Assembly (NCBI GenBank): GCA_038063895.1
Contig: JBBTUG010000006.1
Coordinates: forward strand, 6,701 to 70,700
Direction: 5' to 3'
DNA length: 64,000 bases
Source: Patescibacteria group bacterium
GTDB lineage: Bacteria > Patescibacteriota > WWE3 > JAMCXX01 > JBBTUG01
Position 1 is the first letter of the stretch; each line of letters opens with the position of its first letter. Position numbers and translations under genes: made by a program. The notes beneath the pieces are model-generated. The model did no database searches, had not been told where the DNA came from, and worked only from the letters and a program-made list of their open reading frames with translations. Positions 2,684-64,000 of this stretch are shown piece after piece.

Positions 2684-5237
2684 AATATTCTTTAAAATAT
2701 ATCAGTTCGGTTTGGTTATTCTGGTGTTGCTTTTTCCTCTCGCCAACAGCGATCTTTATTATTTTGTTAATCCCAAGCTCTATCCTGCCCGGGCTTTTCT
2801 GGTAGTTTTAATATTATTTTCCGGGTTGGCGCTTATGGCTAATTTACTTAGGAAGAAGAGCGCCGGTTTTATCATCAACGAAATAAAATCCGACCAGTTC
2901 TTAAAGATAGTTTTGGCGCTTTTTGTCGTCCGGGCGGTATCGATTAACATGAGCCGAAATTACCAGGCTAGTTTTCTTCTTCTGGCATTTTTTGCCTCAA
3001 TGATCGCCCTTTATCTGATGCTAAAATATGTTTTTTCACGGGATGGTAAATTTCTATTTAATCTTTATTTAGTTCATCTCCTTGCCGTCGCCCTGATCGG
3101 TTTTTACGGAATAGCCCAAGCCTTGCTTCTGCTCATAGATATTAAACTGCCGGGAGTTTTGCTGGGGGGAACATTCCTCCGAGTCCCGGCGACTTTTTAC
3201 GATGCCAACCATCTGCCGGCTTACTTACTGACTGGTCTGCCGTTTATCCTGGTTTTTGGATGGATGCAGAGAAATAAGATTCTCGGAAGGCTCCTATTGG
3301 GGCTGACCGGACTTTTAGGGGTTGTCGTCCTCTTATCTTTTTCCCGGAGCGGGTTTGCCGGATTTTTTCTCAGTTTTGTCATTATATTCCTGAGTATTGT
3401 CCGTTTCGGTTACTGGCAAAAAGCCGCCCAGTTATTTTCCATCGTTGTGATTATCGCTTTCGTTATCTTTCTCTCCGGCCGGACTCAGTTTTCTTTGGTC
3501 AACCGACTTTTCGGTTCCTTCACTTCGGCAGAGAAGTCAACGGTCGCCCACGTGGCGCTGCTTTACGGCGAGTTTAAAATATTCCTCGACCATCCGGTTT
3601 TGGGTGTCGGGTACGGCAGTTTCAGTGAGTATTTCCGCAGCTCGGAAATCGGGCGGGAGCACGCCGTTGTCGATCCGGCGACCCAGGTTAGGATTCCGCC
3701 GCACAGTCTTTGGCTGGAGGCACTCAGCGAGACGGGGATCGTCGGCTTTTCGCTGTACTTATCACTTTTGCTGCTTATTTTTGAGTCATTGGTGAAAGCG
3801 TTGAGAAAGGTTAGTGGCAAAAAAGACCGCCTATATCTGACGGGATTACTGGCCGGATTTTTAGGTCTGAACCTGGCCAGCATCTTTTATTCTTTCAATC
3901 TCGAATTCTTTTGGTTCTATCTGATTTATTGCTATCTTTACAGCCGGAAAGTTTATCAGACGAAAGAGGCGCTACCGACACCGGCCGCTTTGGAGGAGAG
4001 CGAAAAACTGCCGTGGCGGGAAATCGGCGCAATGTTATTCACCGCGTTATTTTCCGGAATATTTATTTTTTGGGGTTTGGGTTGGGGACACCTACTCAGC
4101 GAGGAAGAGGGGTTAAATGCTTATCTCTCGAAATGGATGTTGCGCCGCTACGAAATGGGCTGGCCAGATTTTTGGATAACGCAGCTTCAGGCTTCCGGCT
4201 GGTTCCAAAAGACGCCGTTTGCCTATTGGCTGGGAACGGTAATGATGTTTCTCTACTACATCACGACTTTTTCGGCTAAATTCTTTCCCGCCTTTTTTGG
4301 CTGGCTGGCAACATTACTGGTTTACCTGCTCGGACGGCGTTTCTTCGGCCGAGGGGTGGCGATTCTTGCCGGGATGATCCTTGTGGCGCTGCCTCTCTTT
4401 TTGTTAAATGTCCGCACAGGCGCGGTTTATCCGATCCTGCTCTTCTACCTGTTGACCTTAGTATTAGCCGCTTCCCGGCTGCGGACTCAACCGACATTGT
4501 GGCTGGCGGCGGGAATCATCCAACTGCTGTTTTTCTTTACCGACCAGCAATTGGCGTGGTGGCCGTTTACGATTTTGAGCCTTTACGGAATCTTTCTTCT
4601 TTTCCGGGCCGGGAAAGCCATTCGCAAACGGGCCTATTTTCCGCTGCTTTGTTTTCTAAGTTACTTAGTCCTGGCGATAGTACCTTTTAGTTTTTGGTAC
4701 CAATCGATGGCCGCCAAATTCGGGGAAGCATTTATCCAAGGATTTCCCCTGACACCGGTGTTAATTTATAGTCCGTTGCTTCTTTTAGTTTTATTATCTT
4801 TAAGTTCCCTCATTCTGGCTTATTGGCTTACGCGCCGTCTCCATTTGTTTAACAGCGTCCGCTCCCGGCTGGTACTCGTTGTTTTCTTAGCCATTTTGGC
4901 TGGAACCGGGAATCTTCAAACGCGGCAGATTTCGCCGGACTACCGGCAACTAAAGCTGGCGGCCGCCAGATATAATGATAATGGCGACGGGAACATGCCC
5001 TTATTGGTGGATCATACCCCTTCCTGGGTCCTTACTTACTACAGCGAAATTCCGATTTGGTGGCGGACCGGACGGACGGACATGGAAAAATCTTTTCTTG
5101 ATGGTAAACTGAATAGCTTCTACGCGATTTTGCCGGGAGCCGACTTCCGGGTAATCCGGCGGCAGTTGGTCGGTCGTCAGATTGGGATTAAGATTGTTGC
5201 CGCGGCCGAAGACTGGGTTTTGGTCAAAAAGTGGTAA
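2676..5237 (+). CDS. Large polytopic membrane protein: N-terminal O-antigen ligase/Wzy_C-like domain fused to a C-terminal GT39/ArnT/PMT-like glycosyltransferase-like domain
   Basis: 853 aa with about 20 predicted TM segments. The central region 'HVALLYGEFKIFLDHPVLGVGYGSF...HSLWLEALSETGIVGF' is typical of the Wzy_C/O-antigen ligase family. The C-terminal half 'FFGRGVAILAGMILVALPLFLL' resembles GT39/GT83. Confidence 0.5.
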   Translation: MNKIFFKIYQFGLVILVLLFPLANSDLYYFVNPKLYPARAFLVVLILFSGLALMANLLRKKSAGFIINEIKSDQFLKIVLALFVVRAVSINMSRNYQASFLLLAFFASMIALYLMLKYVFSRDGKFLFNLYLVHLLAVALIGFYGIAQALLLLIDIKLPGVLLGGTFLRVPATFYDANHLPAYLLTGLPFILVFGWMQRNKILGRLLLGLTGLLGVVVLLSFSRSGFAGFFLSFVIIFLSIVRFGYWQKAAQLFSIVVIIAFVIFLSGRTQFSLVNRLFGSFTSAEKSTVAHVALLYGEFKIFLDHPVLGVGYGSFSEYFRSSEIGREHAVVDPATQVRIPPHSLWLEALSETGIVGFSLYLSLLLLIFESLVKALRKVSGKKDRLYLTGLLAGFLGLNLASIFYSFNLEFFWFYLIYCYLYSRKVYQTKEALPTPAALEESEKLPWREIGAMLFTALFSGIFIFWGLGWGHLLSEEEGLNAYLSKWMLRRYEMGWPDFWITQLQASGWFQKTPFAYWLGTVMMFLYYITTFSAKFFPAFFGWLATLLVYLLGRRFFGRGVAILAGMILVALPLFLLNVRTGAVYPILLFYLLTLVLAASRLRTQPTLWLAAGIIQLLFFFTDQQLAWWPFTILSLYGIFLLFRAGKAIRKRAYFPLLCFLSYLVLAIVPFSFWYQSMAAKFGEAFIQGFPLTPVLIYSPLLLLVLLSLSSLILAYWLTRRLHLFNSVRSRLVLVVFLAILAGTGNLQTRQISPDYRQLKLAAARYNDNGDGNMPLLVDHTPSWVLTYYSEIPIWWRTGRTDMEKSFLDGKLNSFYAILPGADFRVIRRQLVGRQIGIKIVAAAEDWVLVKKW

Positions 5238-11570: not shown

Positions 11571-12167
11571 ATGCCACACTCCATTCTACTAAGTAACTTA
11601 CCGCCTAGCGGCGGGTCTTTAACCCTTCGGGACAAAATTCTTTTGAGTCTTTTGTGTGTTGGGGCGATGGTTGAGACTACTTTAGCTGAAGCGTCTACGC
11701 CACAGACTATTGAATATGCTCTAAGTTCCTTGGAGCGGAAGGAGTTTATTCGAAAGAAGCGAGGTTCGATTAAGAGTACAATTTCTTACCTACTGGCCGA
11801 AAAACTTCTTCGGGCCAGCGGGTCGTATCGCAAGAGATCATTTCAGCTGACCGAGGAAGGGTTGAATACTCTTTTTTCCAAGTTTCCCACCCTTAAGTAT
11901 CGGAAGTTTAATTGGGACGGTCGTTGGCGTGTTGTGATTTATGATATCCGTGAACAGGATCACCGTCTCAGAGACCGGTTAAGAACAAGGCTTAAATCCC
12001 TCGGTTTTAAGTTTATGCAAAAAAGTGTTTGGATCTCGCCATATCCGATGGAAGCGGATCTGGAGGATTTTCTCCGAAAAGAAAATCTTTGGGGAAGAAT
12101 CTTCGTCTTTTCGGCGACTTTGCCGAAAAAGGAAAATCTAAAAATAATCCGATTATTTAATCTTTAA
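11571..12167 (+). CDS. PaaX-like family protein (winged-helix plus PaaX_C-like domain), paralog 1
   Basis: 'WDGRWRVVIYDIREQDHRLRDRLRTRLKSLGFKFMQKSVWISPYP' matches the PaaX C-terminal domain signature (W.G.W..V.Y.IPE..R..R..L...GFG.LQ...WISP). Confidence 0.5.
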   Translation: MPHSILLSNLPPSGGSLTLRDKILLSLLCVGAMVETTLAEASTPQTIEYALSSLERKEFIRKKRGSIKSTISYLLAEKLLRASGSYRKRSFQLTEEGLNTLFSKFPTLKYRKFNWDGRWRVVIYDIREQDHRLRDRLRTRLKSLGFKFMQKSVWISPYPMEADLEDFLRKENLWGRIFVFSATLPKKENLKIIRLFNL

Positions 12168-14257: not shown

Positions 14258-14680
14258 ATGAAAATGCTTTTGGGGGAGTACCGCCACAGTTTAGTCGAAG
14301 GTAAAAGGATTTCTTTGCCCAAAAAGATCCGGGAAAAGATCGCGGGTGACGCGGTAATCCTATCGAAGGGTTTCGAAAGTTACGTAGCGGGATTTGATTC
14401 TGAACAATGGGAAAAAACGGCGGAAGCCCCTTTAAACATTCCGCTTTATGATGAGCGGGGGCGGACATTGCGACGGCAGTTTTTCGCTTCGGCGGTGTCC
14501 TCCGAAATAGACGAACAGGGGCGGATCCTTCTTCCGGAGAGTCTATTATCTGCGGCTAATATAAAAGGCGGAGAGGTTATAGTCATCGGCGCGGGGGACC
14601 ACTTTGAAATTTGGGATCCGGCGTTGTGGCAGGAACAATCGGAAAAAGTCAGTAAAGAAGTTGTGAGCGGGAATCGGTAA
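14258..14680 (+). CDS. mraZ: Transcriptional regulator MraZ
   Basis: 'MLLGEYRHSLVEGKRISLPKKIREKI' is the MraZ signature. It is the first gene of the dcw cluster. Confidence 0.85.
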   Translation: MKMLLGEYRHSLVEGKRISLPKKIREKIAGDAVILSKGFESYVAGFDSEQWEKTAEAPLNIPLYDERGRTLRRQFFASAVSSEIDEQGRILLPESLLSAANIKGGEVIVIGAGDHFEIWDPALWQEQSEKVSKEVVSGNR

Positions 14681-15564
14681 TGGCCGGGACGTACCACACC
14701 CCAGTTCTTTTAAATGAGGTGCTGAATTTTTTCCGGCCTGGCTTGGAGAAAAAATATATCGATGCCACCTTCGGCTTTGGCGGACATAGTAACGCAATTG
14801 CGGAAAAGGGCGGAACGGTTCTTGGGATTGAAGCCGACGGCGCGGAGATGGGTGTGGTCGGAAAAACCACCGCGGTTAATCCGTCGGTTACCCTGGCCGA
14901 GGGAAATTTTAGAGATATCGGTAGGATTGCGAAAGAGAACGGATTTTTGAGCGTGGCGGGAATTCTTTTCGATCTGGGGCTATCGAGTTGGCAGTTGGAA
15001 ATGTCGGAGCGGGGATTTTCTTTTCAAAGGAATGAGCCTTTAGATATGCGGTTAAATGGTAAGTCGGGGGTTACCGCCGCCGATTTAGTTAACGGTCTGT
15101 ATGAAAATGAGCTTGCAGAACTTTTTAATAAATTTGGGCAGGAGCCTCGAGCTCGACGATTTGCTCGTGTTATTGCTCAGCGACGCCAGATAGAGCCTTT
15201 TAGAAGTGCCGTGGATTTGGCGGGGGTCGTTGAAAAGGCGTCGGGAACAGGAAGAGGAAGGATTCATCCGGCTACCCGGGTGTTTCAAGCGCTTCGGATT
15301 GCGGTTAATCAGGAACTGGAGAATATTTCAACCGCGCTGCCCCAGGCACTTGAACTCTTGGGTAGCGGTGGACGACTGGCTGTTATCAGCTTCCACTCGC
15401 TGGAGGACCGGATTGTTAAGCTTGCCTTTAAAGAGTGGTCTGGCCGGTTTGGGGATGGTGTCCGGATATTGACGCCAAAGCCAATTGTGCCCGGCAGTGC
15501 TGAAATTAGCCGGAACCCGAGATCCCGGAGCGCGAAACTCAGAGTTATGGAGCGAATAATATGA
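14680..15564 (+). CDS. rsmH: 16S rRNA (cytosine1402-N4)-methyltransferase RsmH/MraW
   Basis: 'YHTPVLLNEVLNFF...DATFGFGGHS' and 'FHSLEDRIVK'. Confidence 0.85.
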   Translation: MAGTYHTPVLLNEVLNFFRPGLEKKYIDATFGFGGHSNAIAEKGGTVLGIEADGAEMGVVGKTTAVNPSVTLAEGNFRDIGRIAKENGFLSVAGILFDLGLSSWQLEMSERGFSFQRNEPLDMRLNGKSGVTAADLVNGLYENELAELFNKFGQEPRARRFARVIAQRRQIEPFRSAVDLAGVVEKASGTGRGRIHPATRVFQALRIAVNQELENISTALPQALELLGSGGRLAVISFHSLEDRIVKLAFKEWSGRFGDGVRILTPKPIVPGSAEISRNPRSRSAKLRVMERII

Positions 15565-23028: not shown

Positions 23029-23871
23029 ATGGAAAAGAGGCAACCGATAATCTGGTACTTAGAAAACAAATTTATCCATTCCACGGATGCGAAAATTCCA
23101 ATCACCGATTTAGGCTTACAGCGGGGGTGGGGAGTCTTTGATTTTTTGCGGACCTACTCTGGTCAGCCTTTCCAGCTATCGGTGCACGTTGCGCGTTTTT
23201 TGCGTTCAACCAAAGGATCCTTGATTAATCTCAACAAATCCGCCGAGGAACTTACTCAATTGGTCAACCGATTGATTGCCCGTAACTCGGTGGTTGGGAG
23301 TGTCGGGATAAAGCTATTCGCCACGGCTGGGAATAGCCGTGATGGGCTGACAGGCGGGAAAAAGCCGACCTTTGGGATTATGCTTTTACCTCTCCATCGC
23401 TACCCCCGGGCAACGTATACTCGGGGAATTAAACTTGGTATTTATCGGGAGTTAAGGACAAATCCGGAGGTTAAATCCACCAACTACGCCGCGGTTCTCG
23501 TTAAAATGGCGGTGGAAAAACGCCGGGGTTTTGATGATATTCTTTACGTCGGGACGAATAATGTTGTTTATGAATCCGCCCGCAGTAATTTTTTTGCGTT
23601 GATTAACGGAACTTGGATAACGCCGAAGGAAGGGGTCTTGCCCGGAATTACCCGGAAGCTGGTGATTGGGTTGTCCCGAAAACGTTATCCGGTGAGGGAA
23701 GGGGTGCTGACTTTGGCGCAACTTAAAAAGGCCGGCGAGGCTTTTATCACTTCAACAGAGCGGGAGGTTATGCCGGTGGTGAAGGTGGGCAGCTTTCGCA
23801 TCGGAAACGGCAGGGTTGGGGATAAGACGAAACAACTAATGGCTGATTTTCACCGGTTTACTCTTCAATAA
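23029..23871 (+). CDS. Class IV (fold-type IV) aminotransferase, likely D-amino-acid transaminase supplying D-Glu
   Basis: 'GLQRGWGVFDFLRTYSGQPFQLSVHVARFLRS' is a Dat/IlvE family signature. The gene sits between murB and murD. Confidence 0.65.
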   Translation: MEKRQPIIWYLENKFIHSTDAKIPITDLGLQRGWGVFDFLRTYSGQPFQLSVHVARFLRSTKGSLINLNKSAEELTQLVNRLIARNSVVGSVGIKLFATAGNSRDGLTGGKKPTFGIMLLPLHRYPRATYTRGIKLGIYRELRTNPEVKSTNYAAVLVKMAVEKRRGFDDILYVGTNNVVYESARSNFFALINGTWITPKEGVLPGITRKLVIGLSRKRYPVREGVLTLAQLKKAGEAFITSTEREVMPVVKVGSFRIGNGRVGDKTKQLMADFHRFTLQ

Positions 23872-29680: not shown

Positions 29681-30835
29681 ATGAAAGAAATGGAAAACGA
29701 AAAGAAAAACATCGGAGTAATATTTGGCGGAATGAGCGCCGAATGCGAGGTATCTTTAGCAACGGGGAGATACGTTTACTCGCTGCTAAATAATAAAAAA
29801 TTTACCGGAACGCCATTTTATTTGGATAAAAAAGGCACTCTTTGGCAGGTTCCAGACAAACTGGTAATCCAAAATACGACGACGGATATCGAGCAGCGCC
29901 TGGAGAAGGACGCGAGCCGGGTAAATTTCGAGGACCTTCCCGGGAAAGTCAGCTGTGTTTTTAATGCGCTGTTGGGCAAGTACGGCGAGGATGGCTGTTT
30001 TCAGGCGATCTTGGAATTGTTGAAAATTCCTTACACCGGTTCAGGAATTCTCGCTTCCGCGTTGGGGATGGATAAAAAAGTCCACAAGAAAATGCTCTCC
30101 GGGGCGGGGTTTTTAGTGGCCAAAGATCTATTAATTCGTAATTCGGAATTCGATATTCGGAAAGTTACGGAAAAAGTTTCCAGGGAAATCGGTTTCCCCT
30201 GCGTTGTGAAGCCGACCCGGGAAGGTTCAAGTATGGGAGTGTCGGTGGTTAAAGAAGAAAAGGGTTTGGAAACAGCGTTCGAGTACGCCTTTAAGTATGA
30301 TCAGGAGGTTCTTGTCGAAGAGTATCTGAAAGGGATGGAGTTTACCTGCGTGGTTTGGGGCAACGACGATCCGAAAGCTATGCTCCCTACCGAAGTCGTG
30401 TTCGAGGGCGATTTTTTTACGTATGAAGGTAAATACATGCCGGGAAAAACCCAGACGATTACGCCCGCCCGGCTTTCGGAAGAGGGCTTGGCCGAGATAC
30501 AGCGCCAATCCGTGGCGATTTATCAGCTGATTGGTTGCCAGGGCTATGGCCGGGTTGACGGCTTTGTCGTTCCTAAGACCCTAAAGGTCGGGGAGCCCAG
30601 ACCTTTAGGGTCTTTGAGTTTGTCTGATATCTCAATTTACATCGCTGAGCCGCACACGGGAACAATTATGGTTCCTTCGTCTTTCGTTTTTCAACAGGCG
30701 GCGAAGTTCCGGATTGATCTGTCCACAGAATTCCATGGAAAAAAAGGTTCGATTCCGATGACCCCGCGCATTTTGGTAACAAAAATTATTGAGTTAGCCT
30801 TCGAAGCGTTTAGCAATAAGAAAGGATTATTATGA
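29681..30835 (+). CDS. ddl: D-alanine--D-alanine ligase (paralog 1; Lys-Tyr retained at the K215/Y216-equivalent position)
   Basis: ATP-grasp motifs 'FPCVVKPTREGSSMGVS' and 'FFTYEGKYMPG' (K at 30431-33, Y at 30434-36). The C-terminus is extended by a repeat insertion. Confidence 0.8.
   Translation: MKEMENEKKNIGVIFGGMSAECEVSLATGRYVYSLLNNKKFTGTPFYLDKKGTLWQVPDKLVIQNTTTDIEQRLEKDASRVNFEDLPGKVSCVFNALLGKYGEDGCFQAILELLKIPYTGSGILASALGMDKKVHKKMLSGAGFLVAKDLLIRNSEFDIRKVTEKVSREIGFPCVVKPTREGSSMGVSVVKEEKGLETAFEYAFKYDQEVLVEEYLKGMEFTCVVWGNDDPKAMLPTEVVFEGDFFTYEGKYMPGKTQTITPARLSEEGLAEIQRQSVAIYQLIGCQGYGRVDGFVVPKTLKVGEPRPLGSLSLSDISIYIAEPHTGTIMVPSSFVFQQAAKFRIDLSTEFHGKKGSIPMTPRILVTKIIELAFEAFSNKKGLL
30577..30612 (+). 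repeat. 36-bp palindromic element, copy B (in-frame inside ddl paralog 1)
   Basis: Perfect 13-bp arms 'gaccctaaaggtc'/'gacctttagggtc' with loop 'ggggagccca'. It encodes KTLKVGEPRPLG. Confidence 0.85.
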
Positions 30836-31884
30836 GCGGCATATTAAGAATTGGTTTATTTATCGGCGGGCTGTCTTCGGAAAAGGAAATCTCTTTGGAA
30901 TCAGGGCGTCACGTCTACAACAGTCTTGACCGGGAAAAGTATGAAGTTCTTCCGATCTTTGTCGATAATGAAGCCCATCTTTGGGAGATTGAGGAGGGGT
31001 TGCTGTGGAAAAATACCACCACAGATCTTAAAGATGCCCTCGGTAGCGGGGGAAGCCGGGTTTACTACGAAGATTTAAGAAATAAGATTGATTTTGCTTT
31101 TATTTGCCTCCACGGAAAATACGGCGAGGACGCCTTCCCGGGACTTTTTGAGATACTGGGAATTCCCAACAACGGCGCCTCCGTTTTGGGAGGAGCATTG
31201 TCAATGGACAAATACCGCCAAAGGATGGTTTTGCAGGCGGCTGGGATCGATACTCCAAAGTATTTTCCAATCGAAAATTCCAAGTTCCAAATTCCAAATT
31301 CCAAAATATTTGATGAAGTAGAAGCTGTGTTAAGTTACCCGGTAATGGTGAAGCCGTCGCGGGAGGGAAGTTCAACCGCACTGCATAAGGTGAATAACCG
31401 GGGAGAACTTGAAGCCGCACTTTCCGATGCCTTTATTTACGATAAAGTCGCCTTGGTCGAGGAAGTTTTGGTCGGAACGGAGTTAACGACATTGGTTTAT
31501 GGCGAAGGCGAAAATATTAAAGCCCTGCCGCCATCGGAACTTCTCCGGGGAGGGGATTTCCTTACCGCCCAGGAAAAATTTCTGCCGGGTGGGGCGCAGA
31601 TGATAACCCCGCCGCGGCTACCTGTGGAAGTAGTTGAGGAGGTAAAGAGAGCAGCGGTGAATACGTTTCAGGCGTTAAGTCTTAAGGTCTATAGCCGGAT
31701 CGATTCATTTTACGTTCCGGGTCGGGGAGTGGTAATTTTGGAGCCGAATAACCCGCCGGCGATGACGCCCTCGACGGCTTTGTGGCTTGAGGCTGCCGAA
31801 GAAAACCTTAACGCTTCCCAATTGTTAGATGATCTGATCCGTATCTCCCTTGTCCTCCACGCCGCCAAACTCGGCCCACTTTAA
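30832..31884 (+). CDS. D-alanine--D-X ligase (Ddl paralog 2; Phe replaces Tyr at the Y216-equivalent position)
   Basis: 'YPVMVKPSREGSSTA' and 'FLTAQEKFLPG' (F codon at 31579-31581). About 350 aa. Confidence 0.75.
   Translation: MSGILRIGLFIGGLSSEKEISLESGRHVYNSLDREKYEVLPIFVDNEAHLWEIEEGLLWKNTTTDLKDALGSGGSRVYYEDLRNKIDFAFICLHGKYGEDAFPGLFEILGIPNNGASVLGGALSMDKYRQRMVLQAAGIDTPKYFPIENSKFQIPNSKIFDEVEAVLSYPVMVKPSREGSSTALHKVNNRGELEAALSDAFIYDKVALVEEVLVGTELTTLVYGEGENIKALPPSELLRGGDFLTAQEKFLPGGAQMITPPRLPVEVVEEVKRAAVNTFQALSLKVYSRIDSFYVPGRGVVILEPNNPPAMTPSTALWLEAAEENLNASQLLDDLIRISLVLHAAKLGPL
31278..31306 (+). repeat. Heptanucleotide tandem repeat (ttccaag/ttccaaa x4) inside the ddl paralog 2 coding sequence
   Basis: Seen directly. 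It encodes 'KFQIPNSKIF'. The unit length is not a multiple of 3. Confidence 0.7.
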
Positions 31885-31885
31885 G

Positions 31886-31914
31886 TTGACAAATTGCCTA
31901 TAGTGTGGTATAAT
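31886..31914 (+). promoter_or_regulatory. Perfect consensus sigma70 promoter: TTGACA - 17 nt - TG-n-TATAAT
   Basis: 'ttgaca' at 31886-31891, the 17-nt spacer 'aattgcctatagtgtgg', and 'tataat' at 31909-31914 with an upstream TGg extended -10. Confidence 0.6.
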
Positions 31915-31919
31915 AAACT

Positions 31920-32420
31920 CAGAGTCTTGAAAAAAGATTCCAAATCCCGAAAGGAGGTGCCATTCGATTATCTTTTTGGCGCTTTATTTGGGAATCCCCA
32001 ATCGGCAAGGGGATTTTGGGAGGTAAGTAACTCCCTAAGACGACGGCCACATTGATGGAACGCCCGTCGCCGAGACAGAAGGAAGCTGCCTTTACGGTCC
32101 GAACTGACTATCAGAGGCATCTGGTGGTTGGTTTGGGAGCACAGAGTTACGAGGATAACTCTGCGGTTAACCGGAAAGGATGGGTCGGATGAGGAAAGCA
32201 TCCCACCTGCTTCTGTCTTGAAGGAAATGGAGAAAGTTCCCGGCTAACAACCCCGTCTCCTAGCCAAGGTTGTTGTTCATTCTAACGTTGGAGAGCCTAG
32301 CGTCCTCGCGCAAAGCTCTATGCACCTTGTATGTTGCCACGATGAATACCGGTAAGGGAGAGAACCGAACGTTGGTCCCAACCCGTGATCCCACAGGGAT
32401 CACCATTCGCAATCGAGGAG
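31920..32420 (+). ncRNA. Candidate about 500-nt structured non-coding RNA or long leader (family unidentified), GC-rich
   Basis: There is no + strand ORF of 60 aa or more between the consensus promoter and the small ORF at 32427. GC content is elevated. Long-range complementary segments are present, for example 'agacagaag' at about 32073 with 'cttctgtct' at about 32207, plus local hairpins such as 'ggaatcccc/ggggatttt'. Confidence 0.35.
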
Positions 32421-32426
32421 GTTGCA

Positions 32427-32768
32427 ATGGGTAACAATTTCGTGGCACGGATCGCCTGGCGTCTGACCAAGGAGCTCGGGCTGACGCTCGAGATTCTTGA
32501 GACAGAAGTCATGCGGTCAGGCGAAGGCCCGGTTTGGAACGCGATTTACGTCCGGGTGAAGCGTATGAATCCCAGTACGTTGGGAATCATCGTTGCCACC
32601 GGTCGTGAGTTCGGTTCCAAATACCCGACCCTTTATCACGTACACTGCGGTACGTACGTGAATAAGTACTGGTCGGGGCGTCATACTCTGCGGGTTCTCG
32701 CCACCACAGCGCTCATATGCAAGATGTATGAGTTGCTGAAGGAGGAGGAGCTGCAGGCGCTGACGTAA
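32427..32768 (+). CDS. Hypothetical 113-aa protein with a strong SD ('gaggagg'), within the GC-rich module
   Basis: 'atcGAGGAGGttgcaATGggt'. The ORF is GC-rich and is followed by an intrinsic terminator. Confidence 0.4.
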   Translation: MGNNFVARIAWRLTKELGLTLEILETEVMRSGEGPVWNAIYVRVKRMNPSTLGIIVATGREFGSKYPTLYHVHCGTYVNKYWSGRHTLRVLATTALICKMYELLKEEELQALT

Positions 32769-32785
32769 CCGTGCTCGCGCCAAAG

Positions 32786-32827
32786 TGCCATGTTGGGGTA
32801 ACCTAACGTGGCATTTTCTTTTTTTAA
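32786..32827 (+). terminator. Rho-independent terminator
   Basis: Stem 'tgccatgttgggg'/'cctaacgtggca' followed by 'ttttcttttttt'. Confidence 0.55.
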
Positions 32828-32958: not shown

Positions 32959-33840
32959 ATGAAGATAAGAAAGTGTAAATTAGAAGGTGACTCTAGGGAG
33001 TCCTGCCGCGAGCTCTTCTTAGTTGCCGGCTGGGATATAAAGACTACCAACTCCTTTTCCCGGTTTCTGGCCGAATTGGATGCAACCCCGGCCTCCAAGA
33101 TATTCATCGATTCAATGATCAAGTTTAAAGAAATGTATCCGCCGCTTCGAACCGGTCCCCGTCAGGTTGACTATTTAGGGCTCCTTCGCGGCGAAAATGA
33201 GTATAGGGCAATGAAACGGGCTCAATTTTACCTCAATAAGAAAGACCTTGTGAAGGTTTCCGGTGGACTAGGCGGCAAAAGATTAGTTTTGACAACCCGG
33301 GCCCACCGTATTTTTTACGAAGACTACCCTTTGGCCAAACTACGTCGGGAAAAGTGGAATGGGCTGTGGACAATAGTGATGTATGACTTACCGGAGAAAG
33401 AAAAAAGCTTTCGGGAGTATTTAAGACTAAAGTTAAAAGGACTTGGTTTCGGCAGTCCGCAGGAAAGTGTTCTAATTTCGCCATTGCCAATTGCCGCTCC
33501 GACCCAGGCGTTAATAGAGGGGGAGCAAGCTGAAAGATACGTTTGGGTGGTTTCGGCTCAACGGGTTTTAGGTTTGGACAATCGCGAGGTGGCGGAGAGA
33601 GCGTGGAAACTTGATGAACTTAACATGCTTTATAAATGTCTCTTAAAAGTTTCTCCGGTCGTTAAGGGGAAGAATGATAAGAGTCTTCTCGATGCGTGGC
33701 GCCGCTGCTTTTTAGCGCTGGACAATGTTGACCCGTATCTGCCGCTTGAACTTCTTCCTAAAGATTGGCAAGGAGAGAACTGCCGAAAAGTGGCTGAATC
33801 GTCAGGGTTCGCCGGGTTAATAAAGTCAATTTTTCAGTAA
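32959..33840 (+). CDS. PaaX-like family protein, paralog 2
   Basis: 'WNGLWTIVMYDLPEKEKSFREYLRLKLKGLGFGSPQESVLISPLP' is the same PaaX_C-like signature as the gene at 11571. Confidence 0.5.
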   Translation: MKIRKCKLEGDSRESCRELFLVAGWDIKTTNSFSRFLAELDATPASKIFIDSMIKFKEMYPPLRTGPRQVDYLGLLRGENEYRAMKRAQFYLNKKDLVKVSGGLGGKRLVLTTRAHRIFYEDYPLAKLRREKWNGLWTIVMYDLPEKEKSFREYLRLKLKGLGFGSPQESVLISPLPIAAPTQALIEGEQAERYVWVVSAQRVLGLDNREVAERAWKLDELNMLYKCLLKVSPVVKGKNDKSLLDAWRRCFLALDNVDPYLPLELLPKDWQGENCRKVAESSGFAGLIKSIFQ

Positions 33841-33913: not shown

Positions 33914-35383
33914 TTATCTATAAATATCAGGGAGGTCGTTTTCGAAGAGGATCAGAGAGTTGGGTTTGACTAATTGCGGGATTATCTCTTTGGTTGCCTG
34001 ATCGAGGGAGTCAGTGATGAATAATCTCTGACCTATTGTTCCGTTGTTCCATTGTTTCATTGCTGTGGCGTTGCTCCAGCCGCCTTCTCTAATTCCTTGC
34101 AGAAGGGCTGCACGGTTGGTTTTGTTGACGATCACGGCGTAATCAAAATTTTCGGCAATCAGTTCTCCTAACTTTTTATTCTCTTCGAACTGCTGTTTTC
34201 CCAATTCCACTATTCCCGGAGTCACTATTATTTTTGGGTAGTTGGGTAAACGGGTAATCAGTTTTATTGCGGCCCGGGCGCCCTCCGGGTTGCTGCTGTA
34301 GGCGTCATCAATTATTAACGAGTTTTCGGGGCCGTGGATTAGTTGTAAGCGGTGTTCCGGTGGGCTGACCTTGAATAGGCCGTGCCTTATTTCCTCTTCA
34401 GTTAAGCCTAAATATGTTCCTACAGCAATAGCCGCCAGGGCATTGCTGACGTTGTGGTCTGCCGGGAGGTTGAGGGTGTAAGTGTCTTGTTTTACCCTGA
34501 ACTCGGAGGATTCGGGAGAGGATGAAATAATTTCCGCCTGAAGATCGGCTTCAACTCCGTGCGGTTTGCTAATCCGGGAGTAACCTACTTTATTTATTAT
34601 AGTTTTTAGATAGAGTTCTACGCATGGTTGGGAGTACAGATTGAAAACCGCCAAGCCCTCCTCCGGAAGGGATTGAATCAATTCCGATTTAGCTTCCACG
34701 ATATTTTCCAAACTCCCGAACCGCTCCAGGTGCTGATTAGTTATTCCGGTGATAATCCCGATTTTAGGTCGAACCATCCGGCAGAGTTCCGCAATCTCGC
34801 CTTTTTTGTAGGCGCCCATTTCGACGATAAAGACTTCGTGCTCCGGCTTTAATTTCATATTGATGATACCGGCTATGCCGAAAAGCGTATTGTAGCTTTT
34901 TGGAGTCGCCAAAACTTCGTACTTCGTTGCGAGAACAGTTGCTAGGATTTCCTTCACCGTGGTTTTGCCGTAACTGCCGGTAATTCCGATGACCAATAGG
35001 TTTTTGTGTTCCGTGATAATTTTTTGGGCACGGAGAACCGTCCGGCGGCGGTTGATGATTTCGTATGGCCGGAGAACTAGTAAAGATATTAGAAGTAACG
35101 GCTGGGGGAACAGCTGAAGAAGAATAACGATAATTACACCCTTAAGGTCAAGGCTCCCCGACCTTAAGGGTGTGGCCCAGGGCTGAAATAGAAATATGGG
35201 AGCTAGGCTGAGGGCAGTGGCGCATATGAAAAGAAACCTGGCCTTCGAAGTCCACACCAGCGCCTTTTTCTTTTCCAGTCCTAAACGGAACAAATTTTGA
35301 ACGGTCCATTTAATGAAGCGGACTAGGTCGTATTCCAAAACCTGCAGGGCGTAAAGCTGGTTGTAAAGCGGGATGTACCTCAT
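33914..35383 (-). CDS. murF: UDP-N-acetylmuramoyl-tripeptide--D-alanyl-D-alanine ligase, with an N-terminal hydrophobic extension containing a repeat insert
   Basis: 'LLVIGITGSYGKTTVKEIL' P-loop and 'IGIITGITNQHLERFGS'. The start is set at Met 'MRYIPLYNQL' (35383) because the longer ORF overlaps the upstream hydrolase gene. The two genes overlap in an ATGA arrangement. Confidence 0.85.
   Translation of the reverse strand: MRYIPLYNQLYALQVLEYDLVRFIKWTVQNLFRLGLEKKKALVWTSKARFLFICATALSLAPIFLFQPWATPLRSGSLDLKGVIIVILLQLFPQPLLLISLLVLRPYEIINRRRTVLRAQKIITEHKNLLVIGITGSYGKTTVKEILATVLATKYEVLATPKSYNTLFGIAGIINMKLKPEHEVFIVEMGAYKKGEIAELCRMVRPKIGIITGITNQHLERFGSLENIVEAKSELIQSLPEEGLAVFNLYSQPCVELYLKTIINKVGYSRISKPHGVEADLQAEIISSSPESSEFRVKQDTYTLNLPADHNVSNALAAIAVGTYLGLTEEEIRHGLFKVSPPEHRLQLIHGPENSLIIDDAYSSNPEGARAAIKLITRLPNYPKIIVTPGIVELGKQQFEENKKLGELIAENFDYAVIVNKTNRAALLQGIREGGWSNATAMKQWNNGTIGQRLFITDSLDQATKEIIPQLVKPNSLILFENDLPDIYR
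35137..35172 (+). repeat. 36-bp palindromic element, copy C (in-frame inside the murF N-terminal region)
   Basis: Perfect arms 'cacccttaaggtc'/'gaccttaagggtg' with loop 'aaggctcccc'. It encodes PLRSGSLDLKGV in murF. Confidence 0.85.
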
Positions 35384-51006: not shown

Positions 51007-51032
51007 TTTATCCTTAACATCCGATAAAAAAA

Positions 51033-51068
51033 CACCCTAAAGGTCGGTGGAGGTTGACCTTCAGGGTG
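51033..51068 (+). repeat. 36-bp palindromic element, copy E (intergenic, at the rpmA 3' end; terminator-like)
   Basis: Arms 'caccctaaaggtc'/'gaccttcagggtg' with one mismatch and loop 'ggtggaggtt'. It is followed by 'taaatgttttt'. Confidence 0.75.
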
Positions 51069-51080
51069 TAAATGTTTTTC

Positions 51081-59090: not shown

Positions 59091-59690
59091 ATGGTCAAAT
59101 TAGTGAATCAGACAATATTTACTGCTCTATTAAAGGAGAAACAGCTCCTAACCTTTACGGCGGCGGACATCTGCGCTCTTTTCGGAGTCAGCGCGGTGGC
59201 AACAGCAGGGTTACTCAACCGCTACACAAAAAGAGGACTTATTCTCCGGATAAAACGGGGGTTTTACGTGTTGGCCGAGGCTTTACCGCCCGATGTTTAC
59301 CTCGCAAATAAAATTTACAGCCCTTCATATATCTCGCTCGAATTTGCATTGTCGTATCACGGGGTTATTCCCGAGACCGTTTACGAAATTACTTCGGTTA
59401 CGACGAAGGCCACCCGTCGGCTGGAAACCCTGGGAAAGGTATTTTCTTATCGGAGAATTAAGAAGTCTGCGTATACCGGGTATGGGACCGAGAAACAAGG
59501 TACAGCCAGTTTTTTTATCGCCGACGCCGAGAAAGCTTTCGTGGATACAAATTACTTCCGGATAATAAACGCGCAGGAACCCTTATCCCGGTTTCATAAG
59601 GATAAAATCAACCCCGAAAAAGCCTTATACTACGCAAAACTGTTTAATAACCTGAAATTGACCAGCATTATTAAAACAACCCTTCAATGA
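59091..59690 (+). CDS. abiEi: Type IV toxin-antitoxin / abortive-infection AbiEi-family antitoxin (transcriptional regulator)
   Basis: 'RGLILRIKRGFYVL...SPSYISLEFALSYHGVIPE' is an AbiEi_4 signature. The gene overlaps the downstream AbiEii. Confidence 0.7.
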   Translation: MVKLVNQTIFTALLKEKQLLTFTAADICALFGVSAVATAGLLNRYTKRGLILRIKRGFYVLAEALPPDVYLANKIYSPSYISLEFALSYHGVIPETVYEITSVTTKATRRLETLGKVFSYRRIKKSAYTGYGTEKQGTASFFIADAEKAFVDTNYFRIINAQEPLSRFHKDKINPEKALYYAKLFNNLKLTSIIKTTLQ

Positions 59691-60451
59691 TTAATATTGA
59701 AACACTTGAAAAATTAGCGCGGCAGACTCAGACTAGTGTGTTTCCGAACGTTGTTCGTGAGTATTTTCAGCACGTATTTTTGGCCGAGCTTTACAGGTTA
59801 CCGGAGGCGGGGCGAATCCTTTTTAAAGGTGGTACGGCGCTTCGCGTGGTTTATAACAGTCCGCGTTTTTCGGAGGATTTGGATTTTTCCCTTTTTAGTA
59901 CTCCTTTAAAAAAGGTTACCTCTTTCGTTGAGGACTTATTTGTCCAAGTATTAACTGAGATGGAAAATGCCGGAATAAGGGTTGAACTCGGCGATAAACT
60001 CGGATCGACCAGTGGGGGATATTTTGGTCTGGCCACTTTCCGTATGTTTGAATACCCATTGATCAGTGTGGAATTGAATGTATCGGCGCGAAATATCAGG
60101 GACGTAATTGGGGAAATTGACAGCGTAGCGAACAACTTTGTACCCACCTATACAATTATGCATCTGCCGCAAAAAGAGATCGTTGAAGAAAAAGTTTTTG
60201 GGGCGCTTCGGGATCGTAAAAAACCCCGGGATTTCTACGATTTATATTTTATTATGCGCAGTAACCTTCTTTCCCACGACCAAAAAAAACGATTATCCGG
60301 ACTAAAAGAGCAGATAGTTAGGGATGCAAAAGCTATTAATTTTCGCACCGAGCTTGGGGTATTTTTACCGGCGGATCAGCAGGCGATTATCCGTGATTTT
60401 CCCGCAACACTTGCGCGCGAGCTCAATCGACAGTTAAGCACTTTGAGTTGA
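59687..60451 (+). CDS. abiEii: AbiEii/AbiGii-family nucleotidyltransferase toxin (DUF1814)
   Basis: 'LFKGGTALRVVYNSPRFSEDLDFS' is the NTase motif. Confidence 0.75.
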   Translation: MINIETLEKLARQTQTSVFPNVVREYFQHVFLAELYRLPEAGRILFKGGTALRVVYNSPRFSEDLDFSLFSTPLKKVTSFVEDLFVQVLTEMENAGIRVELGDKLGSTSGGYFGLATFRMFEYPLISVELNVSARNIRDVIGEIDSVANNFVPTYTIMHLPQKEIVEEKVFGALRDRKKPRDFYDLYFIMRSNLLSHDQKKRLSGLKEQIVRDAKAINFRTELGVFLPADQQAIIRDFPATLARELNRQLSTLS

Positions 60452-60502
60452 TAATGGCTGTAAATTATTGACAATATATAATAAGTACGTTATAATGTAC
60501 GT

Positions 60503-60865
60503 ATGGATACTAAAACCACCCTCTCGATCTCCCAAGCCCGCAAAGTCATTTTTTCAATCGCCGAAAAAGTCCAAAGGCCTGGCGCTTACTACACTCTGAC
60601 TGAAAAAGGCCGACCGAAGGCTGTCGTTATGTCGGCGCAGGAATTCGAAAATTGGCAAGAGACTCTAGAGGTAATGCAGGAATTTCCGGATTTAAAAAAG
60701 GATATTGTCGAAACGGAATCGGCTGTTAAAAGCGGTGAATACAAAAGCTGGACGACTTTGACGACCCTTTTGGGCCGGGAAGGCTTCGTTGTCGCCGAGA
60801 ATACTCCGAAAAGGTATGCAGTTCCAACTACGACTAAAACCAAGCGCGCAAAAAGAGTTAGATAA
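60503..60865 (+). CDS. Phd/YefM-family type II antitoxin
   Basis: 'ISQARKVIFSIAEKVQRPGAYYTLTEKGRPKAVVMSAQEFENWQETLEVM'. Confidence 0.65.
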   Translation: MDTKTTLSISQARKVIFSIAEKVQRPGAYYTLTEKGRPKAVVMSAQEFENWQETLEVMQEFPDLKKDIVETESAVKSGEYKSWTTLTTLLGREGFVVAENTPKRYAVPTTTKTKRAKRVR

Positions 60866-61067
60866 ACTGGAGAAAACAGCCCGTTATAAGGTTCTGGCGG
60901 CTTTTTCGGAAATCGCTAAGGACCCTTTTGTCGGGAAGAAATTGGAAGGGGAGTTTCGCGGCTGCTACTCTTACCGGGTTTGGCCTTTTAGGATTATTTA
61001 CCTCATCTACAAAAAAGAGCTCCTCGTTCTCGTTATCCGCATCGGTCACCGCCAAGGCGTTTATTGA
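60816..61067 (+). CDS. RelE/ParE-family type II toxin
   Basis: 'FRGCYSYRVWPFRIIYLIYKKELLVLVIRIGHRQ'. The start is set at MQFQ and overlaps the antitoxin 3' end. Confidence 0.65.
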   Translation: MQFQLRLKPSAQKELDKLEKTARYKVLAAFSEIAKDPFVGKKLEGEFRGCYSYRVWPFRIIYLIYKKELLVLVIRIGHRQGVY

Positions 61068-61107
61068 TATATTTTCAGGTCATGCGGTAATATTTAAGAA
61101 CGGAGGT

Positions 61108-61911
61108 ATGACGGAGAACATCTTTGAGAAAATCAAGAATATTAATGAATACGGGCAGGAATTTTGGAGCGCCCGTGATTTGTATAAATTACTTGGTTAC
61201 ACCGAATACGGGAAGTTTCTTCCGGCTATAGAGCGGGCAAAGGAAGCCTGCAAAAACAGTGGGCAGGGTGTAGAGGTGCATTTCGCTCACCTGAGCGATA
61301 TGGTTCCCATTGGCTCCGGAGCCGAAAGGTCTGTTGAAAATTTCTCTCTTTCCCGCTATGCCTGTTACCTTATCGCCCAAAACGGTGATCCGCGGAAAGA
61401 AGAGATTGCCAGGGCGCAGACTTATTTTGCGATCCAAACTAGGCGCCAGGAGGTGCAGGAACTGCAAATTGAGGACAGCAAACGCGTATTTCTGCGGGAT
61501 GAGATGAAGGAACACAATAAGGAATTGGCCCAGGCGGCCAAATCCGCTGGTGTTATTAACCATGCCAATTTTCAGGACTTCGGATACATGGGACTTTACG
61601 GGGGTTTAAGGCAAAAAGACATTCATTCCAAGAAGAAACTTAATAAAACTGATGCAATTTTAGACCATATGGGAAGTGAAGAACTCGCGGCTAATCTATT
61701 CCGGGCCACGCAAGCCGCGGCTAAACTTAAGCGGGAAAATATTTTCGGCCAGAGAAATGCCAGCCTGGCCCACTTTAATGTTGGGAAGAAGGTCCGTCAG
61801 ACAATTAGAGAATTGGGCGGCACGATGCCGGAGCATTTACCAACCCCGGAAAACGTAAAAGAATCTAGAAAGCGCCTTAAAAAATCCCCAGGAAAGTTAT
61901 TGTCAACTTAG
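61108..61911 (+). CDS. DinD-like DNA-damage-inducible protein (BRO-N/KilA-N-type N-terminal domain)
   Basis: 'YGQEFWSARDLYKLLGYTEY...SRYACYLIAQNGDPRKEEIARAQTYFAIQTRRQE' matches the DinD family. A strong RBS 'aacggaggt' precedes the ATG at 61108. Confidence 0.5.
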   Translation: MTENIFEKIKNINEYGQEFWSARDLYKLLGYTEYGKFLPAIERAKEACKNSGQGVEVHFAHLSDMVPIGSGAERSVENFSLSRYACYLIAQNGDPRKEEIARAQTYFAIQTRRQEVQELQIEDSKRVFLRDEMKEHNKELAQAAKSAGVINHANFQDFGYMGLYGGLRQKDIHSKKKLNKTDAILDHMGSEELAANLFRATQAAAKLKRENIFGQRNASLAHFNVGKKVRQTIRELGGTMPEHLPTPENVKESRKRLKKSPGKLLST

Positions 61912-62116
61912 TTAATCTCCCAGCCAATTACCCTAGCAAAGAAACAACCTGCCTCGCTGGTCATCGACTCTGAGGCTCAGACTCGAAGAGCAGGCGGGTG
62001 AAGCAATTCTGCAACCCAACTCGAAATATGAGGGGGAAAGGGGTAGAATTATAATAGGCTTAGGAATTCAAAATCATTTTCAAATGAGGTTGGTATTGTT
62101 AGCATGGTCAACTATA

Positions 62117-64000
62117 TGAATACAATATTTGAACAACTTACAGATTTATTAAAAAAAGACGAGCGCCTTGTTTCGCAAGACGACGTATTGTTGAAAAATC
62201 AAACACAGGAATTGGCGCGCAAGAATGATCCGGCGCTCTTAAAACTTTTACTTTCCGACAAAACGATAAAACAGCACTTCCTTTTTGAGGTAGAAAAAAC
62301 GCTGATTTTTGATAAAGAAAAGTTTGTCCGCTTTATCTCCAACAAACAATTTTTGCCGGATTCTTATACTGCTTTCAAAAACAAAATTGGTTTAACTGCT
62401 GGTGATGAGTATGTGAGCGAAAACAAAGAAGTGGTTTTGGTATGGCCTTACAAAGACTGTGTTTTGGAAGGCGGAATGACAAAAGAAGATCAAAAAAGAG
62501 ATGAGATTTTTTATAACGAAACATTAGCGCCGGACGACATCAATCGCTTGCTTGACGCCAAAGTTTTTACCAATTTTAAGCGGTTAGACAAAAAAGGCGA
62601 ACACAAGCTGGACGGTTTCAAGCGCGATGAAAAAGGCACGATTAAAGATAATTTGATTATTAAAGGCAATAACCTACTCGCGCTCGCTTCGCTCAAAAAA
62701 GAATTCGCCGGAAAAGTTAAACTGATTTATATTGATCCGCCGTATTATTTTTCTGAAAAGAAAGATGGAGATACCTTTGCGTATAATTCAAATTTCATAC
62801 TTTCTACCTGGCTAGTTTTTATGAAAAATCGGTTAGAAATTGCCAAAAAACTTCTAGACAAGGAAGGTTCAATATTCGTGCAGATCTCTGATGATGGGGC
62901 TTCTTATTTAAAATTACTAATGGATCAGGTTTTTGGCGTAGAAAATTTTGTAAATGTTATTAGTGTCAGAATGAAAAATATTGCTGGCGCGAGTGGTGGT
63001 GGTGAAGATAAAAAATTAAAGAAAAACATTGAGTTTATATATATTTATTCTTGCAATGAATCTTATTTCAAACCTTTTAATAATATTTACGATTACAAAG
63101 AATTATATGAAGTGGTACAAGAATACAAAGAAAATGAAGTGAGTTGGAAGTACACCTCTGTTTTGTATGACGAGGGTTCAAAGAAATATATAGCACTAGC
63201 AAAAGATGGCGATGGGAATGATATTAAGATATATAAAAGAGTAAATCCTATTTTTAAATCAGTAAATCAAATATCAAAAGAAGAGAAAATATCAGAAAAG
63301 GATGCATATTATAAGTATTCGGATAAAATATATACAACAGCAATGCCGCAGAGTTCTATTAGATTAAGAGTCATGGATGTTCTAGGAGAAAGGGTTAATG
63401 ATGCTGATTTATTTTCAATTGAATATGTCCCGAGGAGTGGAAGAAATAAAGGTAGACCTTACGAACAATTTTATAAAGGTGAAAAACTCAGACTTTTTTC
63501 TTGGCTACGAGATGTTTCTGTGAAAAAAGATGGATTAATTCTTAAAAAAGAATTACAGGGTACATATTGGGACGGATTTAATTTAAACAATCTATCAAAA
63601 GAAGGGAGAGTCCAATTAGAGAATGGGAAAAAACCAGAAGCTTTGCTCCGGAGAATAATTGATATGGCGACAGAAGAAGGCGAAACTGTTTTGGATTACC
63701 ATATTGGTTCGGGGACAACTTGTGCTGTGGCGCACAAAATGGGAAGAAAATACATTGGAATGGAGCAAATTGACGATCAAATGAATAAATCCATAGAAAG
63801 ACTTCATAATGTAATAAACGGAGATGATAGTGGTATATCAAAATCAGTGGATTGGAAGGGAGGAGGAGATTTTGTATATATGGAACTTGCCAAGTGGAAT
63901 GAAGAGTGGATTGAAAAAATTGAAAAAGCTAAGACCGGAAAAGAACTTGCCAAACTTTGGGATGAGATGAAAGAAACCGCCTTTTTAAGCTACAAAGTAG
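62117..64000 (+). CDS. Beta-class DNA N6-adenine/N4-cytosine methyltransferase (Type III Mod-like), 3' truncated by the window end; AT-rich (horizontally acquired)
   Basis: Motif IV 'KLIYIDPPY' lies upstream of motif I 'VLDYHIGSGTTCAVAHKMGRKYIGME'. The frame is still open at 64000. GC content is markedly lower than in the rest of the window. Confidence 0.65.

Follow-up and report, generated by a model that had tools for sequence, protein, structure and literature searches.

Two overlapping genes for Ddl-family (D-Ala-D-Ala ligase) proteins, here called par1 and par2, lie on the forward strand of a 64,000-nucleotide stretch of DNA (the window; contig JBBTUG010000006.1, positions 6,701 to 70,700) from a metagenome-assembled genome (MAG) of Patescibacteria, a member of the candidate phyla radiation (CPR). 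They differ at the position equivalent to Tyr216 of Escherichia coli DdlB, next to the catalytic Lys215, so that par1 is Lys-Tyr (KY) type and par2 Lys-Phe (KF) type. Together they are best explained as an ancient and conserved Ddl module, with the KY gene followed by the KF gene, which supplies MurF, most probably with D-Ala-D-Ala; we give this reading a probability of roughly 55%. The Phe of par2, which led a sequence-only reading to propose a D-Ala-D-Lac ligase, is a fixed hallmark of the KF family and not a recent or local specificity switch. By its residues, the unusual member of the pair is par1, which carries altered catalytic residues, and not par2.

The par1 gene (29681 to 30835) is an open reading frame (ORF) of 384 aa, for which public gene calls start at 29690 and give 381 aa. 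The par2 gene (30832 to 31884) encodes 350 aa with the full canonical set of catalytic residues. The stop of par1 and the start of par2 share a 4-bp ATGA overlap (30832 to 30835), which suggests translational coupling. The proteins are 38% identical (E value, 1e-76), and both contain Pfam domains Dala_Dala_lig_N (PF01820) and Dala_Dala_lig_C (PF07478) above gathering scores, with 82.4 and 140.1 bits, respectively, for par1 and 71.1 and 131.5 bits for par2. On the NCBIfam models TIGR01205, NF002378, and NF002528 (cut-offs of 245.65, 243, and 262), par1 scores 242.2, 241.3, and 241.1 and par2 scores 212.8, 203.8, and 217.3, and GenBank uses the names “ATP-grasp domain-containing protein” and “hypothetical protein” because these scores fall under the Ddl cut-offs. 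AlphaFold models of both proteins have the Ddl fold. The par2 model has a predicted local distance difference test (pLDDT) score of 90.2; that of par1 has a pLDDT of 85.6 and a predicted template modelling (pTM) score of 0.87, and its confidence is low nowhere but in the omega loop and in inserted or remodelled segments, including residues 321 to 360. The top PDB matches of both models in Foldseek are exclusively Ddl or Van ligases (E value, ~1e-31). The par2 model shows no structural preference for LmDdl2 (1ehi) or VanA, and par1 likewise favors no D-Ala-D-Lac ligase structure, but these single-chain models serve as a check of fold and do not discriminate substrate specificity.

Equivalent positions were established in a MAFFT alignment of par1 and par2 with E. 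coli DdlB (from NC_000913.3) and with VanA and VanB from enterococcal plasmids. Phe250 of par2 (TTT codon, 31579 to 31581) lies under DdlB Tyr216, beside the conserved Lys215, and Tyr252 of par1 (TAC codon, 30434 to 30436) occupies the same column. The corresponding omega-loop strings are FLTAQEKFLPG in par2 and FFTYEGKYMPG in par1, and an HMMER alignment of par2 with VanG (4fu0) gives the same register, with eKF under eKY. Equivalence of LmDdl2 Phe261 and Tyr216 was taken from the literature and from a bit-score comparison, LmDdl2 being outside the alignment, and that of Phe258 in lactic acid bacteria from the literature (PMC3378904, PMC5996685). The sequence-only reading was therefore right about the tandem KY and KF paralogs, the position of the Phe codon, and its equivalence to Tyr216. 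The Glu15-Ser150-Tyr216 triad of DdlB is complete in par1 (Glu, Ser, and Tyr) and broken in par2 (Glu, Ser, and Phe). In DdlB numbering, par2 conserves Glu15, His63, Lys97, Lys144, Ser150/Ser151, Glu180, Glu187, Lys215, Arg255, Asp257, Glu270, and Asn272, and its changes are Tyr210 to Leu, Tyr216 to Phe, Gly276 to Ala, Ser281 to Thr, and Leu282 to Ala. In par1, Tyr216, Ser281, and Phe282 are kept and Lys97, Lys144, Glu180, Glu187, Lys215, Arg255, Asp257, and Glu270 are conserved, but His63 is replaced by Leu, the Mg ligand Asn272 by His, and Gly276 by Ile.

The Phe of par2 is shared by its entire family. Phe216, Leu210, and Thr281, as well as Ser280, are present in 120/120 of the closest par2 homologues (100% to ~46% identity), all of which keep every catalytic residue and have Cys, Ala, or Met at position 282. 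Among 1.84 billion cluster representatives searched with HMMER, many proteins of 650 to 950 aa have two complete Ddl units, and these fused double Ddls, when split, consist of a KY-type N-terminal unit and a KF-type C-terminal unit in 57/57 cases, the same order as par1-par2. The N-terminal unit is characterized by Tyr216, Ser150, Asp270, Asn272, Gly276, Ser281, and Phe282, and the C-terminal unit by Phe216, Leu210, Cys150, Thr281, Cys/Val/Ala282, Glu270, and Asn272, a signature that par2 fits (Leu210, Phe216, Thr281, Ala282, Glu270, and Asn272). The second-substrate pocket pairs Ser281 with Phe or Tyr282, bulkier than Leu, in KY units and Thr281 with the smaller Cys, Val, or Ala282 in KF units. 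In a neighbor-joining tree of 205 units, KF units form one clade and KY units another, with VanA and VanB outside the KF clade; the only additional members of the KF clade are three single-domain proteins, also with Phe. Since the Phe is invariant in 120/120 homologues and 57/57 fused C-terminal units, it is not a difference between recent paralogues.

The KY-then-KF arrangement is itself widespread. Peptide patterns specific to KF picked out 79 loci when each GTDB species was represented by one genome. By a BLAST-anchored count, the KF gene of 59 of these has a same-strand KY gene directly upstream, usually a few to ~50 bp away, and one more locus has a single 766-aa KY-KF ORF (Babeliales, Dependentiae; L084). 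The resulting 60/79 is a lower bound, as a few pairs, such as those at L012 and L069, visible on inspection, were missed, and the other loci are mostly ended by contig edges. Carriers are found in Patescibacteria (Gottesmanbacteria, WWE3, Dojkabacteria, and CPR3), Chloroflexota, Melainabacteria, Syntrophales, Bipolaricaulia, and Dependentiae, and the homologue lists of par1 and par2 have many contigs in common, matching this picture. Fusions of ~900 aa are largely from Bacteroidota, including cultured Hymenobacter and Rhodocytophaga, with others in a Verrucomicrobia MAG and a Rickettsiales MAG. At locus L090, from the nearest other species and with an 80% identical par1, a NUDIX hydrolase gene (4152 to 4619 of that locus) separates the KY and KF genes. 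Ddl itself and the plant double DDL are already known, but no literature on a bacterial KY-KF pair, on the KF hallmark residues, or on a partner like par1 was found in a search that mostly excluded subscription journals, and nothing relevant emerged on tandem, fused, or paired bacterial Ddl or on CPR Ddl.

The KY partner occurs in two flavors. The canonical flavor, with the motifs HGKYGDDG and DPN[ST]SSGM, is found in Chloroflexota, in Syntrophales, and in fusions. Patescibacteria, Melainabacteria, and Bipolaricaulia have the EPH flavor, with Leu63, His272, and Ile276, as do three MAGs labelled Gammaproteobacteria or Bdellovibrionales, and all 16 EPH-flavor genes seen lie directly upstream of a KF gene. 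The par1 protein belongs to the EPH flavor: it departs from the canonical KY signature (His63, Asp270, Asn272, Gly276, Ser281, and Phe282) by Leu63, Glu270, His272, and Ile276 and keeps Ser281 and Phe282. Leu98, replacing DdlB His63, is encoded by TTG at 29972 to 29974, and the motif EPHTGTI (30647 to 30667) contains Glu323 (Glu270 in DdlB), His325 in place of the Mg ligand Asn272, and Ile329 in place of Gly276. These replacements are not private to par1. Among its 120 closest homologues (to ~47% identity), Leu63 is present in 98, His272 in 99, and Ile276 in 97, and the altered motif EPHTGTIMVPSS[FY]VFQQA, in which His272 and Ile276 lie within EPHTGTIMVPSS, is nearly invariant across phyla. 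Lys97, Lys215, Arg255, and Asp257 are found in 120/120 and Lys144 in 118/120, and position 270 is acidic (98 Glu and 21 Asp). Conservation of Leu63, His272, and Ile276 amounts to purifying selection on a new motif and not to decay. Because the ATP-grasp lysines, Arg255, Asp257, and Glu270 are kept, par1 is taken to be a functional partner, presumably either a heterodimer subunit or an enzyme of altered chemistry, and not a decaying pseudogene.

Two insertions add to the divergence of par1. The first (aa 298 to 316; 30572 to 30628) follows the Asp257 strand, is absent from par2 and canonical Ddl, where it leaves a 17-aa gap in the par1/par2 alignment, and is modelled with a pLDDT of 67. The second (aa 344 to 361; 30710 to 30763), a Lys/Gly-rich hairpin after the Ser281/Leu282 segment with strands at 344 to 347 and 356 to 359, is typical of the EPH flavor and has a pLDDT of 58 to 61. 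As a result of the altered residues and these two insertions, the Pfam C-domain match of par1 ends at profile position 162/204. In remoter homologues the first insertion is lacking or reaches up to ~50 aa, and KF proteins have lineage-specific insertions of 10 to ~45 aa in the same loop (P0016-P0024, P0018, P0019, and P0040). In both families, the loop after the Asp257 strand looks like a hot spot for insertions.

Like DdlB- or DdlA-type Ddl (EC 6.3.2.4; PDB 2dln, 1iov, and 3i12), par2 has the two Pfam domains, the ATP-grasp Ddl fold (TM score, ~0.8 to 0.9), and all catalytic residues, and both types of gene lie among mur and fts genes. Differences are Phe216, Leu210, Thr281, and Ala282 in par2 and Leu63, His272, Ile276, and the two insertions in par1; furthermore, the DdlB type is a single gene, whereas par1 and par2 form an ordered heterotypic pair with scores under the NCBIfam Ddl cut-offs. 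The fused double Ddls share the KY-then-KF order and, in 57/57, the KF hallmarks, but par1 and par2 are separate overlapping genes, and the fused KY unit has Asp270, Asn272, and Gly276 where the EPH flavor of par1 has Glu270, His272, and Ile276.

The premise that the Tyr/Phe position can switch specificity is borne out by the literature. In DdlB, the Y216F exchange confers depsipeptide activity, F261Y in Leuconostoc and F258Y in Lactobacillus reuteri switch to dipeptide synthesis and restore vancomycin sensitivity, and in lactic acid bacteria the position predicts the vancomycin phenotype (PMC3378904, PMC5996685). Like LmDdl2 of Leuconostoc mesenteroides and the Phe-type Ddl of lactobacilli, par2 has Phe beside the catalytic Lys. 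Nevertheless, it is farther from LmDdl2 (101.7 bits against 1ehi) than from ordinary D-Ala-D-Ala ligases (122 to 148 bits: 147.9 against 4fu0, 146.3 against 3r23, 128.8 against 3q1k, and 122.9 against 1iow), and the Phe residues of par2 and LmDdl2 arose independently. VanA and VanB share the superfamily and fold of par2, but their omega loop is 4 residues longer with Glu/Val or Glu/Asn at positions 215/216, while par2 has a loop of DdlB length with Lys-Phe. The key residue of VanA and VanB is His244. On the NCBIfam D_ala_D_lac model (NF000206), par2 scores 140.5 bits against a cut-off of 550, and on the individual Van models, with cut-offs of 650 to 775, it scores 103 to 124 bits; for VanA, VanB, VanD, VanF, VanM, and VanO the cut-offs are 700 to 775. 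In the van operon, vanH and vanX are adjacent, whereas no 2-hydroxyacid dehydrogenase (VanH-like) or VanX-type dipeptidase, with which the sequence-only reading had proposed to check its D-lactate assignment, and no Alr was recognized among those genes of the 64-kb window that received an annotation; a few of its genes lack a family hit and a few ORFs were unscanned. Of the proposal for par2, the Phe position stands, but Phe alone is not evidence for D-Ala-D-Lac synthesis in view of its status as a clade hallmark, the Van and LmDdl2 scores, and the lack of a recognized VanH or VanX in the window.

Plants offer a functional parallel. Plant DDL (AtDDL, PpDDL BAE45860, and OsDDL BAF22630) is described as two putative complete DDL enzymes fused (PMC9954125). 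In the moss, the two-unit DDL is the sole Ddl homologue listed, and its knockout abolishes D-Ala dimerization and leads to macrochloroplasts. The moss precursor ends in Ala-Ala, only the ordinary pentapeptide is detected, and vancomycin affects plastid division. The moss Ddl is reported to be nearest to homologues of the Fibrobacteres-Chlorobi-Bacteroidetes (FCB) group, which is also where the ~900-aa KY-KF fusions occur.

We propose that the module makes the C-terminal dipeptide, which MurF would add to UDP-MurNAc-tripeptide. With its complete ATP-, Mg-, and substrate-binding set, par2 is likely to be the main catalyst in this CPR lineage. Its Phe may permit hydroxy acids, and a permissive secondary depsipeptide activity is possible, but nothing in the context suggests a supply of D-lactate. 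The par1 protein would be a conserved partner whose metal and first-substrate site has been remodelled, and the pair may represent a heterotypic counterpart of the Ddl homodimer. A single enzyme of two subunits would fit the pair because stop and start overlap, gene order is fixed, and fusion has occurred repeatedly in the same order. While residues, conservation, synteny, fusions, and fold were observed directly, it is from these that we infer the D-Ala-D-Ala product and the heteromer, and a residue-level orthology with plant DDL is likewise only predicted.

Several observations weigh against this proposal. Neither protein reaches the curated NCBIfam Ddl cut-offs, and both units keep full catalytic sets in most lineages, which fits two separate activities equally well. 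Given the lactic acid bacterial rule and DdlB Y216F, a Phe-bearing enzyme may be at least D-lactate permissive. The functions ascribed to KF-type and EPH-type proteins, and a par1-par2 complex, are read from sequence. Four Chloroflexaceae loci (L057, L059, L062, and L068) have a KF gene without a KY gene within 6 kb upstream, either because the partner is elsewhere or because the KF unit works alone, and a few further loci also have KF alone. Genes for D-lactate dehydrogenase, for a VanX-like peptidase, or for a third canonical Ddl may lie beyond the 64-kb window. Finally, the KF type of the plant C-terminal unit is suggested by architecture and FCB affinity and not by plant residues.

Among the alternatives, a dedicated D-Ala-D-Lac ligase would give par2 a role in D-Lac-ended precursors and intrinsic glycopeptide insensitivity and leave par1 as an ordinary D-Ala-D-Ala ligase. 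With Phe at the Tyr216 position the hydrogen-bond triad cannot form, the Y216F, F258Y, and F261Y swaps show what this position can do, and residues 276 and 282 of the par2 second-substrate pocket are also smaller. However, every member of a very large and old clade, fused enzymes among them, has the same Phe, and the moss, with a two-unit DDL (unit types unchecked), has Ala-Ala-ended precursors and responds to vancomycin. In addition, par2 is remote from LmDdl2, far under the NCBIfam D-Ala-D-Lac models, and outside the VanA/VanB branch, neither a D-lactate dehydrogenase nor a D-Ala-D-Ala dipeptidase was recognized in the 64 kb, and the supposedly ordinary par1 has lost Asn272 and His63, all of which makes this alternative quite improbable. 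It is less strained, although still doubtful, to regard the two as independent enzymes, one making D-Ala-D-Ala and the other a different D-aminoacyl dipeptide, such as D-Ala-D-Ser or D-Ala-Gly, for a stem or cross-bridge variant. Their genes would then stay together only because wall synthesis draws on both products. In most lineages each of the units retains its full catalytic set, which implies that both active sites are used, the KY and KF pockets differ systematically at positions 281 and 282, the EPH site is conserved and remodelled rather than degraded, KF occurs alone in some genomes, and in L090 the pair is split by the NUDIX gene. Repeated independent fusion in the same order and stop/start overlap are nevertheless more typical of subunits or tightly coupled steps, the moss knockout is without D-Ala dimerization in an organism with only the ordinary pentapeptide detected, and a second Mur-type ligase for a second dipeptide is not evident beside the pair.

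Loss of function in par1 was rejected as the principal explanation, since its altered motif is conserved across phyla. A dead pseudoenzyme or decaying duplicate, disrupted by the palindrome described below and without its Mg ligand, would leave par2 as the sole Ddl and would account for the changes of Asn272 to His, His63 to Leu, and Gly276 to Ile, for the palindrome-encoded 17-aa insertion and the second insertion, and for the truncated Pfam match and low model confidence at 321 to 360. It is very unlikely in light of the intact reading frame, the near-invariant motif, the invariant Lys97, Lys215, Arg255, and Asp257 with Lys144 in 118/120 and an acidic position 270, the confident overall model (pTM, 0.87), and the location of all 16 EPH-flavor genes directly upstream of a KF gene. 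Furthermore, His is able to ligate metal, and reduced CPR genomes seldom retain useless genes. There is also a slim chance, somewhat below that of two independent enzymes, that the KY-KF pair, rather than being two redundant D-Ala-D-Ala ligases, is a machine with two active sites that divide the labor, in which par2 takes D-lactate or another D-residue and the EPHTGTIM unit of par1 carries out another ligation by means of a His-ligated metal; the wall precursors of Patescibacteria, Melainabacteria, and relatives would then not end in plain D-Ala-D-Ala.

The conserved KY-KF module favored here lies within a complete cell wall and division cluster on the forward strand (14258 to 44510). The order is mraZ, a gene at 14680 to 15564 (not scanned, in the usual position of rsmH), a penicillin-binding protein gene, murA, a sigma factor gene (reverse strand), murC, murB, a class IV aminotransferase gene, murD, murE, glmS, yvcK, par1, par2, a PaaX-like gene, murF (reverse strand), a hydrolase gene, mraY, ftsW, murG, ftsA, and ftsZ. 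The consumer of the Ddl product, murF (33914 to 35383, reverse strand; 489 aa, with Mur_ligase_M and Mur_ligase_C), is 2 kb downstream of the pair and scores 237.8 bits on TIGR01143, under the cut-off of 288.6. The class IV aminotransferase (Pfam Aminotran_4; 23029 to 23871), between murB and murD, is plausibly a D-amino acid transaminase supplying D-Ala or D-Glu, and no racemase was seen in the window. Two PaaX-like genes (PaaX_M and Cas2-like domain) are present at 11571 to 12167 and 32959 to 33840, the latter directly downstream of the Ddl pair and beside murF. Toward the end of the window (59091 to 61911 and 62001 to 64000), GC falls to 0.345 after an AbiEi/AbiEii toxin-antitoxin pair, a Phd/YefM antitoxin gene, and a gene with a Bro-N domain, possibly marking a mobile or foreign segment.

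Both genes contain repeats, as had been reported from the sequence. The par1 palindrome (30575 to 30614; 19-nt arms, 95% complementary) encodes most of the first loop insertion. Relatives with 80% and 71% identity (L090, 3001 to 4155, and L091, 189 to 1343, respectively) have inserts of similar size at the same site, which also form hairpins but differ in sequence. At 51031 to 51070, in the intergenic space of two convergent genes, a copy of the par1 palindrome arm with one mismatch makes a further hairpin, and these palindromes may be a small element family able to land in frame in a surface loop. The par2 repeat consists of 4.4 copies of the heptamer AAATTCC (31275 to 31305; protein segment ...NSKFQIPNSKIF), and three copies of TAATTCG in par1 (30132 to 30162) occupy the homologous position, in the linker that precedes the central domain. 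Gain or loss of copies would put either gene out of frame, but no copy-number variation was seen among contigs encoding identical protein.

Beginning 2 bases past the par2 stop is a perfect extended sigma-70 promoter (31886 to 31914; TTGACA-17-TATAAT with TG). It is followed by ~500 nt without a convincing ORF (31886 to 32426 with the promoter included), a 113-aa ORF (32427 to 32768), and a strong terminator (32782 to 32817). The noncoding stretch after par2 folds much better than shuffled sequences (z = −4.3) and is a candidate for a structured RNA or a long leader. It has no Rfam match even at an E value of ≤1, and Rfam found one tRNA only over the window.

Ddl is among the classical targets of antibiotics, and vancomycin resistance is widely predicted from the Tyr/Phe position. 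The conservation described here means that the rule derived from lactic acid bacteria is not transferable to other phyla, as Phe is constant throughout an entire, old subfamily of Ddl. This KF subfamily nearly always occurs with a Tyr-type partner, as adjacent genes or in one fused protein. It is possible that many uncultured phyla, Bacteroidota, and probably plant chloroplasts have a heterotypic double Ddl as their working enzyme. In the partner found in CPR and Melainabacteria, a conserved His replaces the Asn that binds Mg, which represents a remodelled ATP-grasp site. The bacterial two-gene pairs are simple models for the role of each half of plant DDL.

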